Below are positions 13,369-61,873 of a DNA stretch of 64,000 bases, piece by piece. The stretch is from sequence record PP400788; one strand, given 5' to 3'. Both the position numbers and the translations under genes were made by a program. Numbering within the stretch: position 1 is the stretch's first letter; each line of letters begins with the position of its first letter. The notes beneath the pieces were generated by a model, which made no database searches, was not told the DNA's origin, and was given only the letters and a program-made list of their open reading frames with translations. The stretch is from Escherichia phage FL33.

Positions 13369-13971
13369 TTATAGATTAAATCCTTCAAAATCAAGAGTAT
13401 AGATAGTGTATGTTGAATACTTTTTATACTCATATCTATCTGCAATTCTAAATACACTTCCAGCTGGTATCATTACTTCTTGTTCATCTGAAACTAATTC
13501 CATATTACGATAGCGATGGCTATCCGGAAACTTAAAGTTTGGATTGTATTCTTTACAGCGTAGAGCTTTTATGGCATACTCCTGGAAATTGAATACCATA
13601 GGAGCTTTGAATTCAAAAATAACTTGTGTGTTGTATTCTAATCCAGAAGCAAAATGTAGAGCTATATTTTTATCATATGAAGCTGATACTACTTTATCAA
13701 ATGTAATAATATCAATTCCTTGATTTAACACTTGCTTAGTCTCAACTGGAACACCTCTCCAAAGAGGTTTATCGTTTGGTTCCAAACGAGATTTGATTAT
13801 TTCATTTAACCAAGAGTGGTCGTCTGGCTTATTAGTAATACAATGAATTAAAAGTTCAATTTCGGATAAATTAAATCCTTCAGAAAGTAATTCTTCACGA
13901 ATAGAAGCACGCACCGATGCATCCATTGATTTGATTTTAAAATCTTTTAATTGCATTGCTGAATATTTCAT
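13369..13971 (-). CDS. modA: ADP-ribosyltransferase ModA, 200 aa
   Basis: R / S-x-S / EQE ART motifs (WRG, SAS, EQEVMIP); length equals T4 ModA as recalled. Confidence 0.75.
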   Translation of the reverse strand: MKYSAMQLKDFKIKSMDASVRASIREELLSEGFNLSEIELLIHCITNKPDDHSWLNEIIKSRLEPNDKPLWRGVPVETKQVLNQGIDIITFDKVVSASYDKNIALHFASGLEYNTQVIFEFKAPMVFNFQEYAIKALRCKEYNPNFKFPDSHRYRNMELVSDEQEVMIPAGSVFRIADRYEYKKYSTYTIYTLDFEGFNL

Positions 13972-14603
13972 TCAACTACCTCAATATCATACACTTTAAA
14001 TGTTCCAAATGAATCGTGTAATTTTTCTTTTGAAATAGAAGTTATTTTATACTTTCCAATTGGAATCATCCATTCTTGTTCACGCACAATCATCATTAAG
14101 TTATCAGTACGTTCTGAATCTAATCCATCAGTATCTTCATATGTATACTTAAACTCAGTATTAGGAGAAGAAAGTATAATATCGCTGATATGGTCAGAGT
14201 AATTAAAAGCTTTATCAGTTTTTAAGCGAAGTACTATTTCAGTGAAATATTCAGCATAAGAAAAAGAACACGCTGTATGCAAACTAGTAGTAAATGAATC
14301 TACTCTGTTCGTTGAAAACACTTCTCCAACTTGTAAATCTTTAATGAGTTCTTTTGTCGATTTTGATATACCACGATATAGCTGATAAGGCGATTTAGTT
14401 AAATGCTTTTTAATGATTTTATTCAACTGCCGATGAAGAGCTTCATTCTTTTTGGCTTCCATACATTGCCAAAGAACTGACTGTTCAAAGTCAGTAAATT
14501 TTTCACAGACCTTTTTATACATATCATATTGAAAATCAACACTTTCAGCTTTTATAGATAACTGTTCAACATCTGCAAGATTAATAATCATGATAGCCTC
14601 CAT
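13968..14603 (-). CDS. modB: ADP-ribosyltransferase ModB, 211 aa
   Basis: YRG, STN, EQEWMIP motifs; overlapping stop/start with modA. Confidence 0.7.
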   Translation of the reverse strand: MEAIMIINLADVEQLSIKAESVDFQYDMYKKVCEKFTDFEQSVLWQCMEAKKNEALHRQLNKIIKKHLTKSPYQLYRGISKSTKELIKDLQVGEVFSTNRVDSFTTSLHTACSFSYAEYFTEIVLRLKTDKAFNYSDHISDIILSSPNTEFKYTYEDTDGLDSERTDNLMMIVREQEWMIPIGKYKITSISKEKLHDSFGTFKVYDIEVVE

Positions 14604-56740: not shown

Positions 56741-56924
56741 GAAACATATCTAACGCTTCTAAAGCATTATCAACTTTAGCTTCAAATTCTTCAATACCTG
56801 ATAAGGCAAAGTTAATGCGTTCCTCATCTGCTTTGCGAATTAAAGCTACCAATTCTTTAATTTTATCTGCTTGTTTGATACTAATCATTATTCCACCACA
56901 TATGAAAGAGAAAATATTGCACAC
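56706..56924 (-). CDS. hypothetical protein, 72 aa
   Basis: ORF. Confidence 0.45.
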
Positions 56925-59062: not shown

Positions 59063-59265
59063 TTTGGTTTACCTTCTTTAACAAAATCGGGATAAGGATA
59101 AAATCCTGAATAAAATCCTTCACCTTTATGATTAATGCATCCTTTATTAGAGCAATAGCACCAATAATCGAAATCACAAGCCATTTCATCATTGCATAAA
59201 GCAAAAACAACTGGCCATTTACACTTTTCACAATGTGCATTTTTAAGAATGCTAATTTGGCTCAT
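59059..59265 (-). CDS. Cys-rich small protein, about 68 aa
   Basis: CEKC...CNDEMACD...CYCSNKGC; start set at the ATGA overlap; track ORF extends to 59286. Confidence 0.45.
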   Translation of the reverse strand: MSQISILKNAHCEKCKWPVVFALCNDEMACDFDYWCYCSNKGCINHKGEGFYSGFYPYPDFVKEGKPK

Positions 59266-59474
59266 AACCATGTAACCTTTAAGCAATATTCTTCTACATG
59301 CTGTTTACGACCTTTCTTATCAATAAAGGTATATTCAACGAATGTTCCAATATAGTCTTTATCTACATCATGTGGACTATTAATTGGGCATTTAGTACGG
59401 CAAATGCGTTCCCATTGACGAATAATTTCCACTTTGTTTTTAGGATCAAACGGATGCGGGTAATGTGCTTTCAT
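59262..59474 (-). CDS. hypothetical protein, 70 aa
   Basis: ORF. Confidence 0.5.
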   Translation of the reverse strand: MKAHYPHPFDPKNKVEIIRQWERICRTKCPINSPHDVDKDYIGTFVEYTFIDKKGRKQHVEEYCLKVTWL

Positions 59475-59516
59475 AATCCACCACTATTAAATCAATATCA
59501 GGAGTAAACATGTCGA

Positions 59517-59924
59517 TTAATTTAGAAACCTTATCCAATCACCGCCAGCAATACCACAACCTATGCGTGGAATGTAAATTACTGGTTTAAACAAAAGGGT
59601 TTCTGCCTGTAGATTTAATTCTATCATGCAGTTTACTAAAGCACCATAATCAAGATTAGGACCTGGTTCGTATTGTGTATACAGGTTATAGCATATACCA
59701 AATCCTGTAGGATTATGTTTAAAAACAATAGACATATCACCTAATTTATCACGAGAACCGTACTCAGTAGTGGTTTTATCTATTTCTAAAATTTTAGGAT
59801 AGGCCCTTGCTAATTGACCTGCTACACCTGAACCCATAGTATGAAAGCAGTTGCACCCATGCGCAATAATATTACCTTGAAGAAATAGGGCGACAATATC
59901 GCCCTTGATATATTTTACAATCAT
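59517..59924 (-). CDS. macro-domain-like protein, 135 aa
   Basis: GDI...NIIAHGCN...GSGVAGQLARA and IPRIGCGIAGG resemble macrodomain diphosphate-binding loops; by eye only. Confidence 0.4.
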   Translation of the reverse strand: MIVKYIKGDIVALFLQGNIIAHGCNCFHTMGSGVAGQLARAYPKILEIDKTTTEYGSRDKLGDMSIVFKHNPTGFGICYNLYTQYEPGPNLDYGALVNCMIELNLQAETLLFKPVIYIPRIGCGIAGGDWIRFLN

Positions 59925-60262
59925 CTAGTACTCAATCCTCGATTATAAGAATCTACCAAACGGTCAACCATTGAATGACAAGCGGCTTTATCTTTCTCCT
60001 CCGCAACTGAACATTCTAAGGTATTCCACTTTTTAGCATATCGTTTTAATAAAGTATCATTTTTGTATCTGCTTGATTTATCTCTTTCTCCGTCTTTATA
60101 TGCATATATTAATTTCTGCGCAAATTCAGCTTGGCATGCTTTATTTTTCCCGCAATAATCCGCGGCAGTACGGTTTACATACTCTCTAATTTCAGTATAT
60201 GATGTATTTGCTAACGCAGAAAATGAAATTAATCCTATACATAAAACCAAAATTTTAGTCAT
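59921..60262 (-). CDS. secreted protein, 113 aa
   Basis: N-terminal signal peptide (cleavage near ALA-NT). Confidence 0.5.
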   Translation of the reverse strand: MTKILVLCIGLISFSALANTSYTEIREYVNRTAADYCGKNKACQAEFAQKLIYAYKDGERDKSSRYKNDTLLKRYAKKWNTLECSVAEEKDKAACHSMVDRLVDSYNRGLSTR

Positions 60263-60800
60263 TTACTATTTCCAGTAGTTTATTATTTTTAAGGTAGTTA
60301 GCCTTTTCTAGGACTTCAGAAGCATATTTAGAACCTGCTTTAACATTCCATCCCGAATTATAAGAGGATATTGCCTTTCTTATATCACCCTTATGTATAT
60401 TTAACCAATAAGAAAGTTCAATGTACGCCCAGGAAGCTGAATTGGACCGTTTATTCAACATTCTTTTTATTTCAGCATCGGTCATATTATAACCAAGTTC
60501 CTTAACTCTTGCTCGCATTGTCGGCAAATAATTTTGGAACATTCCATAGGCATGATGCTTTGGTTTAGATTTTAAATTAACTCCGGCAGAGCTTTCTTGC
60601 CATAAAATAGCAGCCATTATATGACCTAATCCGCTCTTGTGGATATTTTTGTGTGTTTTATATTTTCCATCCTTAGAAAATTGTTCCCCGAATTGATACG
60701 CGTAACGCATGTTATCGAGTTGGACATTACTGAAAGTATGCTCGGAGCTATGTGCCATCATTGAAATGGCCAATAGACCAGCGAGTAGTGCTTTTCTCAT
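60255..60800 (-). CDS. secreted protein, 181 aa
   Basis: Signal peptide MRKALLAGLLAISMMAHS. Confidence 0.5.
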   Translation of the reverse strand: MRKALLAGLLAISMMAHSSEHTFSNVQLDNMRYAYQFGEQFSKDGKYKTHKNIHKSGLGHIMAAILWQESSAGVNLKSKPKHHAYGMFQNYLPTMRARVKELGYNMTDAEIKRMLNKRSNSASWAYIELSYWLNIHKGDIRKAISSYNSGWNVKAGSKYASEVLEKANYLKNNKLLEIVND

Positions 60801-61328: not shown

Positions 61329-61649
61329 TTATTCTTTAAATCTAATCAATTTATTCATAGACTTTGAAACTTCTGCACGAACCTCATGTAGGTTTTTAAG
61401 CTGTTCAAGACGCTGCTCATAGTAAGCAATTTCATCTTCTTCGAGACAGTCCTGTGAATCTTCTTTAAGATAACTCGCATAGTCCTGGAAAGCTTTACGA
61501 ACTACTTCCTGGAAGTCATCAAGACTTTGAATTTTCTTAGGAGCAACAGATACACGACGAGGGGCAGTATAATACTCATAACCAAACCCTGCGCTTAATT
61601 GAGCCATTAATATTTTTCCTCTGGTTGGAACACAGCACGACAAGCCCAC
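61329..61649 (-). CDS. hypothetical protein, 106 aa
   Basis: ORF. Confidence 0.5.
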
Positions 61650-61873
61650 ATACTGGCTTCTTTGAGTTTCGTTTTAGCAATAGTTAACTGATCGAGGCTT
61701 TCAGCATAATTCTTCGCGAATTCACAGTCTTCACAATTATCTAGTGCTTCCCAGAATTCATCATATAAAGCGTCAAAGATAAGTCCTAAACGAACTTCAG
61801 CATCTTTGATAGCATTCACTTTACCGATTTTCTCTTCAGTATGTGGCTTATAACCCTTAATATCTTCAATCAT
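61607..61873 (-). CDS. hypothetical protein, 88 aa
   Basis: ORF. Confidence 0.45.

Follow-up and report, generated by a model that had tools for sequence, protein, structure and literature searches.

The window analysed here, a stretch of 64,000 nucleotides, is 100% identical to the record of Escherichia phage FL34 (PP400789.1), a T4-like phage whose isolation host is E. coli K-12 MG1655. On its minus strand, in the tk-regB interval, lies an open reading frame (ORF) of 135 aa with the position and length given in the initial annotation of this DNA, the product of which is entered in the FL34 record as a 'hypothetical protein' (XAO17537.1). The ORF is flanked by vs and tk.3 (Table 1); past tk.3 come tk.2, tk.1 and tk, with vs.1 and regB upstream of vs, matching the T4 gene order rI - tk - tk.1-3 - tk.4 - vs - vs.1 - regB, in which the gene occupying this slot is tk.4. 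Neither a darT toxin gene nor any transferase gene was found in the tk.4 flanks, the neighbours being vs and tk.3. ModA and ModB, which had been said to be encoded in the same window, were both located there, approximately 45 kb from tk.4.

Table 1. Coordinates of the truncated tk.4 ORF, its conserved motifs, the deletion site and the genes discussed in the text.
Feature	Coordinates	Strand	Remarks
Truncated tk.4/adfM ORF, 135 aa	59517..59924	-	Native residues 1-130, then IRFLN and stop
vs (valyl-tRNA synthetase modifier), upstream neighbour	59921..60262	-	TGA stop overlaps the tk.4 ATG (ATGA)
tk.3 (DUF7202), downstream neighbour	59262..59474	-	Shares its first 29 nt with the end of tk.4 in relatives
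H22-G-C-N25-C motif	59847..59861	-	His22 and Asn25 invariant; His/Asn match Bt_1257 directly
Glycine-rich loop 1, phosphate-binding, G31-S-G-V-A-G36	59817..59834	-	G31, G33 and A35 invariant or nearly so
Gln84 codon, CAA	59673..59675	-	Invariant; at the catalytic Lys84 of TARG1 (4j5r) in the profile alignment
Glycine-rich loop 2, diphosphate-binding, G122-C-G-I-A-G-G128	59541..59561	-	Kept in the truncated ORF
Trp130 codon, TGG, site of the 1-nt deletion	59535..59537	-	GG here, GGG (TGG-G) in relatives
Out-of-frame remnant coding for the lost C-terminus, DKVSKLIDMFTPDIDLIVVDYESTLPASV-stop	59446..59535	-	Overlaps the start of tk.3
ModA	13369..13971		In the window
ModB	13968..14591		In the window

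Other features of the window were recorded alongside. An 88-aa ORF (61610..61873, minus strand), which we take to be T4 vs.4, matches the Pfam family Acb2_Tad1_hairpin (E = 7e-20); judged by this match its product is likely the anti-CBASS cyclic-nucleotide sponge Acb2, which would place a second counter-defence gene approximately 1.7 kb from tk.4. Vs.1 (181 aa; 60258..60800, minus strand) has an N-terminal hydrophobic stretch that, by eye, resembles a signal peptide, as well as a weak match to the SLT lytic-transglycosylase domain (E = 4.8e-5). At 56798..56819 the window shows a short, heavily gapped, divergent patch relative to phage CHD94UKE2, within surroundings that are 97% identical. The GenBank records of FL34 and CHD94UKE2 name small ORFs of the mod region, adjoining modA and modB, 'molybdenum ABC transporter', apparently a confusion of T4 modA with bacterial ModA, and the CHD94UKE2 record gives the name 'thioredoxin' to many unrelated genes; these labels are annotation-transfer errors.

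The macrodomain resemblance proposed for the 135-aa product was borne out by Pfam, by profile searches against the PDB, by an AF2 model and by Foldseek, all of which agree and take it well beyond chance. The motifs that had been quoted in its support (GDI, NIIAHGCN, GSGVAG and IPRIGCGIAGG) all occur in the ORF, and its two glycine-rich phosphate-binding loops (GSGVAG at residues 31-36 and GCGIAGG at residues 122-128) contain conserved positions, with G31, G33, G122, G124, G127 and G128 invariant or nearly so. The Pfam Macro model (PF01661, gathering cut-off 22 bits) matched the ORF as written with 28.7 bits (E = 1.3e-6) and the restored 159-aa protein, described below, with 33.1 bits. A phmmer search of the PDB with the single sequence returned Bt_1257 (1.6e-10) and also Poa1p, SCO6735, Mycobacterium tuberculosis DarG and TARG1, and a family profile built from 48 diverse homologues found Bt_1257 (2.5e-18), TARG1 (1.8e-16), SCO6735 (9.5e-15) and Poa1p (6LFU; 4e-14), with DarG (6e-12 and 1e-9) the weakest match among the solved ALC1-like structures. 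ALC1 was among the top PDB matches, and the viral Mac1 and MacroD-type domains scored far lower. The check that had been suggested, comparison of a predicted structure with known macrodomains, gave the macro fold: when a 159-aa relative was modelled with AF2 (pLDDT 93.9, pTM 0.88), the top Foldseek matches of the model were TARG1, Bt_1257, Poa1p, DarG and SCO6735, with a probability of 1.00 and TM scores of 0.7-0.8. Since the closest neighbours in both sequence and fold are TARG1, DarG, Poa1p and SCO6735, Tk.4 belongs in the ALC1-like class, and we conclude from these comparisons and models that the ORF is a real, ALC1-like macrodomain gene. The homologue search gave 751 matches to the family, those of comparable coverage being typically 146-160 aa, and the restored protein also matched PHROG 335, named 'phosphatase', at 1.6e-71.

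Once restored, the protein has 58% identity with T4 Tk.4 across 155 aa (E = 1e-70), and the ORF is the FL34 copy of T4 tk.4 (adfM), an already described gene; for our explanation as a whole, including the anti-DarT function and the truncation set out below, we put the probability at roughly three in four. The T4 record carries an 'A1pp phosphatase motif' note for tk.4; such macro/A1pp notes stood on Tk.4 in T4 records for years, and the counter-defence role (adfM) was assigned in 2025. In Tequatrovirus the gene occurs in two allele classes, an FL34/RB type of 159 aa and a T4 type of 155 aa, which are about 85% identical over the first ~156 nt and 58% identical in protein over the remainder (window 59446..59924 compared with T4); the pattern is mosaic, and a recombination boundary may lie within the gene. 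Within codons 7-13 of tk.4 (59887..59905, minus strand), approximately 20 nt into the coding sequence, is a perfect 8-bp GC-rich hairpin, AGGGCGAT-ATT-GTCGCCCT, which is followed by a T-rich tail and looks like a terminator, with a fold z-score of only -1.84. The 49 nt running from the end of vs through this hairpin are the same in FL34 and T4 despite the 58% protein identity of the alleles, and at least two other phage records (SP1 and fPS-90) list a 'terminator' feature nearby. Two database entries show irregular forms of the gene. In the first, a 119-aa protein encoded on a 561-nt ENA contig, the ~50 N-terminal residues match FL34-type Tk.4 at 98% identity and the remainder resembles the C-terminus of a uracil-DNA glycosylase; it is presumably a chimeric assembly or a recombinant. 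The other, a T4-type Tk.4 from ENA (95 aa), diverges after residue ~88 and stops at residue 95; as another apparently frameshifted tk.4 allele, it suggests that the gene is repeatedly lost or mis-sequenced.

In relatives of FL34 the tk.4 coding sequence is 480 nt long and encodes 159 aa, ending in ...GGDWDKVSKLIDMFTPDIDLIVVDYESTLPASV. An alignment with CHD94UKE2 and R5505 has one gap column at the site, which reads GATTGGATAAGG in FL34 and GATTGGGATAAGG in the relatives, and a blastn comparison with CHD94UKE2 found the same single indel independently. A query of 1101 nt around the gene corresponded to 1102 nt in all relatives among the matches listed, FL34 excepted, and of the 255 phage records covering the site in a megablast search with a 61-nt probe, FL34 was the only one to lack the extra base. 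The FL34 reading frame therefore shifts after Trp130 and the last 29 residues are gone. The DNA that would encode them survives as a 30-aa ORF opening with TTG (59446..59538), which matches the C-terminus of the 159-aa relative residue for residue and codes for what in the intact protein are helix 130-140 and strand 145-151. Downstream of the indel the DNA is identical to CHD94UKE2 and without decay, and the deletion is therefore either recent or artefactual. The exact 135-aa sequence was not found in a collection of 15 billion proteins, and the cluster at 90% identity that holds the full-length form has 304 members, the 15 listed being 157-159 aa long. An exact-pattern scan of IMG/VR for the deleted and intact alleles (25 and 26 nt) found neither.

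These results bear on the length of the protein, which had been described as shorter than canonical macrodomains and possibly a minimal or divergent fold. The first part stands for the ORF as written, but the gene is one of 159 aa cut by a 1-nt deletion; the second part does not, since, among the records covering the site, the frameshift appears in that of FL34 only, and the intact form ends in the usual C-terminal helix and strand. That the 135-aa protein is a naturally minimal macrodomain, functional as written, could draw on the position of H22, N25, Q84, G122, G124 and both glycine-rich loops ahead of the truncation point, and on the confidence of AlphaFold in what remains, but the truncation removes a conserved helix and a core strand, and the terminal IRFLN is unconserved read-through of a shifted frame. 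With an indel unique among 255 records, a 135-aa form absent elsewhere, homologues of 146-160 aa and listed members of the nearest cluster of 157-159 aa, we regard the minimal macrodomain as wrong and its chances as very slim. It is barely credible that the 135-aa piece and the 30-aa ORF are made separately and reassemble as a split protein: the TTG at 59538 does sit exactly at the junction and opens the DKVSKL...PASV frame, but it is a weak start with no convincing Shine-Dalgarno sequence at the proper distance (GGCGG is only 3 nt upstream), the family offers no precedent, and the layout is an automatic by-product of the frameshift. Programmed frameshifting and transcriptional slippage were considered as well and rejected, the site (GAU UGG AUA AGG) having no slippery heptamer and a run of only 2 nt. 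More generally, short 'divergent' domains need to be checked for frameshifts against close relatives before a minimal fold is proposed.

The model of the intact protein comprises E2-8, H10-15, E19-24, H33-41, H44-52, E64-71, E74-82, H93-108, E115-119, H121-125, H130-140 and E145-151, of which the FL34 product lacks H130-140, the last helix, which is conserved, and E145-151, the last strand, which belongs to the core. Both phosphate-binding loops and every invariant residue precede the truncation point; the missing G at codon 130 would thus keep these and remove the final helix and strand. In the AF2 model of the 135-aa product (pLDDT 91.8) residues 2-8 lose their strand assignment and E115-119 is reduced to two residues, an indication that strand 1 is the partner of the lost strand in the core sheet. 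A pLDDT that remains high is to be expected of an alignment-driven predictor and, as AlphaFold folds the truncated form confidently, loss of function is argued here from topology: the 135-aa product is most likely misfolded or inactive.

The FL34 record would accordingly hold a loss-of-function allele that arose naturally and recently, or else a sequencing error in a homopolymer. That the missing G arose in sequencing or assembly, and that the real phage codes for an intact 159-aa Tk.4/AdfM, has a substantial chance of being right, if one somewhat below even. Loss of one base from GGG to GG is a classic type of error, no other phage record covering the site has the change, and the out-of-frame segment downstream is undecayed and the same as in the relatives. 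A run of three bases is, however, short for a homopolymer error, and the large genes of the window are all intact (for example those of 725, 898, 560, 605 and 475 aa, lengths which we take to be about those of their T4 counterparts), so that the assembly is not full of indels. This integrity is a coarse substitute for a test of homopolymer-indel excess, for which CHD94UKE2 gives no fair basis, as its near-identity to the window is limited to the surroundings of tk.4, the figure elsewhere being 86-97%. Given that tk.4 is dispensable on K-12, a genuine recent frameshift is no less plausible, and loss of adfM would be tolerable in FL34 since its isolation host, MG1655, is the DarTG-free background of the experiments described below. 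On balance we consider a real mutation slightly more likely than an error in the record.

What the intact gene does is indicated by T4 genetics. In a T4 transposon screen on a host carrying DarTG2, tk.4 was the single significant hit, and a clean tk.4 knockout renders T4 sensitive to DarTG2; the gene was renamed adfM (anti-DarT factor, macrodomain), removal of ADP-ribose from DNA was proposed as its activity, and it proved dispensable on K-12, MG1655 being the DarTG-free background (bioRxiv 10.1101/2025.11.20.689424). DarT2 ADP-ribosylates thymidine in single-stranded DNA and thereby blocks replication (PMC11825919), and a phage protein that is also named AdfM, gp104 of PhiKZ, strips ADP-ribose off DarT2-modified DNA in vitro (PMC13309987). 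From the 58% identity and the shared slot, the best inference is that the intact FL34-type allele would have the T4-like anti-DarTG2 function. Intact Tk.4 would then hydrolyse the ADP-ribose attached by DarT2 to thymidine of single-stranded phage DNA, allowing replication to proceed.

The residues conserved in the family give an indication of the chemistry. Across the 48 homologues G8, H22, G23, N25, C26, G33, A35, D49, N80, Y82, Q84, G88, P119, G122 and G124 are invariant. In the profile alignment to TARG1, Gln84, the last residue of the N-L-Y-T-Q motif, falls on K84 and Ala126 on D125, and the Lys84/Asp125 catalytic dyad of TARG1 is thus absent from the Tk.4 family. The catalytic lysine of DarG (K80 in Taq DarG) is likewise absent, Gln84 being at the equivalent position by transitivity via TARG1. 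In the same profile alignment, the columns of Tk.4 Q84, H22 and N25 are occupied in Bt_1257 by Gln, His and Asn, and H24, N27 and Q85 of SCO6735 match H22, N25 and Q84 by transitivity and spacing. A PDB search with a partial query, aimed at DarG and SCO6735, gave only short local alignments, and the equivalence of Gln84 with SCO6735 Gln85 is drawn from the TARG1 alignment together with the literature, in which SCO6735 is described as lacking both catalytic residues of TARG1 and as having Gln85 at the position of DarG K80 and TARG1 K84 (PMC9411070). In SCO6735 the Q85A mutant is inactive, N27S is almost inactive, and H24Y is inactive with a disrupted structure; the authors proposed a water-mediated mechanism, and the enzyme efficiently cleaves thymidine-linked ADP-ribose, protects cells from DarT and removes protein mono-ADP-ribose from PARP1 (PMC9411070).

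Since Tk.4 has H22, N25 and Q84 with matching spacing, we propose that it is a Gln-type, SCO6735-like DNA ADP-ribosylglycohydrolase. In such an enzyme Asn25 and His22 would hold Gln84 in place, and Gln84 would stand in for the lysine of DarG and TARG1 by positioning the distal ribose along with a water molecule. That the AdfM family is a Gln-type, lysine-free hydrolase rather than a captured DarG, and that FL34 carries a natural adfM-null allele, are readings to which we give about even odds. The invariant Gln at the position of the catalytic lysine suggests for the T4 enzyme a mode of action like that of SCO6735, not that of DarG; if AdfM is indeed of the Gln type, the T-even gene would have been recruited from stand-alone bacterial macrodomains, and damage by DarT2 would be reversed by water-mediated rather than lysine-mediated chemistry.

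Other substrates have also to be weighed. The initial annotation had suggested that the macrodomain could reverse ADP-ribosylation by ModA and ModB or degrade ADP-ribose-derived signals, a proposal that found no support, as the only genetic evidence for T4 tk.4 concerns DarTG2 and the genes are unlinked. Reversal of protein, or RNA-protein, ADP-ribosylation by the phage enzymes Alt, ModA and ModB would fit the presence of ModA and ModB in the same window and the capacity of ALC1-like macrodomains to take mono-ADP-ribose off proteins, seen for SCO6735 with PARP1, but the ~45 kb between these genes and tk.4 and a tk.4 phenotype that, in the cited defence screens, is specific to DarTG2 make it improbable, as does the linkage itself. 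Alt, ModA and ModB of T4 make arginine-linked ADP-ribose, which is removed by ARH/DraG-type enzymes, and macrodomains, ALC1-like ones included, are not known to cleave it. CmdTAC, a system with an mRNA ADP-ribosyltransferase, robustly restricts T-even phages (PMC11618068), which argues weakly that Tk.4 does not obviously neutralise RNA ADP-ribosylation. A small-molecule enzyme acting on ADP-ribose-1''-phosphate or O-acetyl-ADP-ribose is unlikely, though it would account for the database names 'phosphatase', 'Poa1p-like' and 'O-acetyl-ADP-ribose deacetylase / RNase III inhibitor', for the name of PHROG 335, for the match to Poa1p in profile (4e-14) and fold (TM ~0.75) and for the A1pp note in the T4 record. 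These names are, however, homology transfers, we know of no T4 pathway producing Appr-1''-p, and the genetic phenotype favours DarT2; a side activity of this kind may nevertheless coexist with hydrolysis of DarT2-placed ADP-ribose, which remains our preferred reading.

Set against known systems, the FL34 gene is closest to T4 Tk.4/AdfM, which likewise lies between vs and tk.3. The two have in common the H-G-C-N-C, N-L-Y-T-Q and G-x-G motifs, all invariant, and the 49 nt compared at the 5' end. The FL34 gene differs in belonging to the other allele class, with DNA too diverged for megablast past the first 156 nt, and in being cut at residue 130 by the frameshift (135 aa against ~155-159 aa). 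SCO6735 (5E3B) and Bt_1257 (2FG1/2AFC) are, like Tk.4, stand-alone ALC1-like proteins, of ~150-160 aa, with Gln in place of Lys and no Asp partner, but they are encoded by bacterial chromosomal genes, do not serve phage counter-defence and are only ~25% identical. TARG1/OARD1 (4J5R) is the top Foldseek match (E = 2e-9, TM 0.72/0.81) and also removes thymidine-linked ADP-ribose (PMC8501950); it differs from Tk.4 in its Lys84/Asp125 pair, replaced by Gln84/Ala126. DarG (5M31, 5M3I), the functional analogue named in the T4 preprint (bioRxiv 10.1101/2025.11.20.689424), shares the fold class (TM ~0.72) and, presumably, the substrate, thymidine-linked ADP-ribose made by DarT2, but has a catalytic Lys80 where Tk.4 has Gln, a second, DarT-binding domain and a gene adjoining darT, whereas tk.4 is an orphan. 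The DarG model NF048014 matched over positions 2-142 of 338, its macrodomain part, at 27.8 bits against a cut-off of 250 bits; with this score, a single domain and neither a catalytic lysine nor a neighbouring darT, Tk.4 was rejected as a DarG antitoxin.

Among phage proteins, PhiKZ gp104 is likewise a macrodomain countering DarT2 toxicity (PMC13309987), but it is presumably unrelated and belongs to a chimallivirus, where it is imported into the phage nucleus. The nearest parallel to the truncated allele itself is adfN of RB69, in which a 1-nt insertion deletes the terminal helix and abolishes anti-DarTG1 activity (PMC11825919). In both cases a natural single-nucleotide indel (in FL34, if the record is correct) strikes the gene of a T-even anti-DarT hydrolase and removes a C-terminal helix; AdfN differs in having a NADAR rather than a macro fold and in acting against DarTG1, which involves guanine, and its loss was verified by experiment, the FL34 case being known from sequence. 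If the deletion is real, FL34 would be of use in work on DarTG2 as a natural adfM-null phage; as a genuine null it would offer, ready-made, a T-even phage sensitive to DarTG2, as RB69 does for DarTG1.
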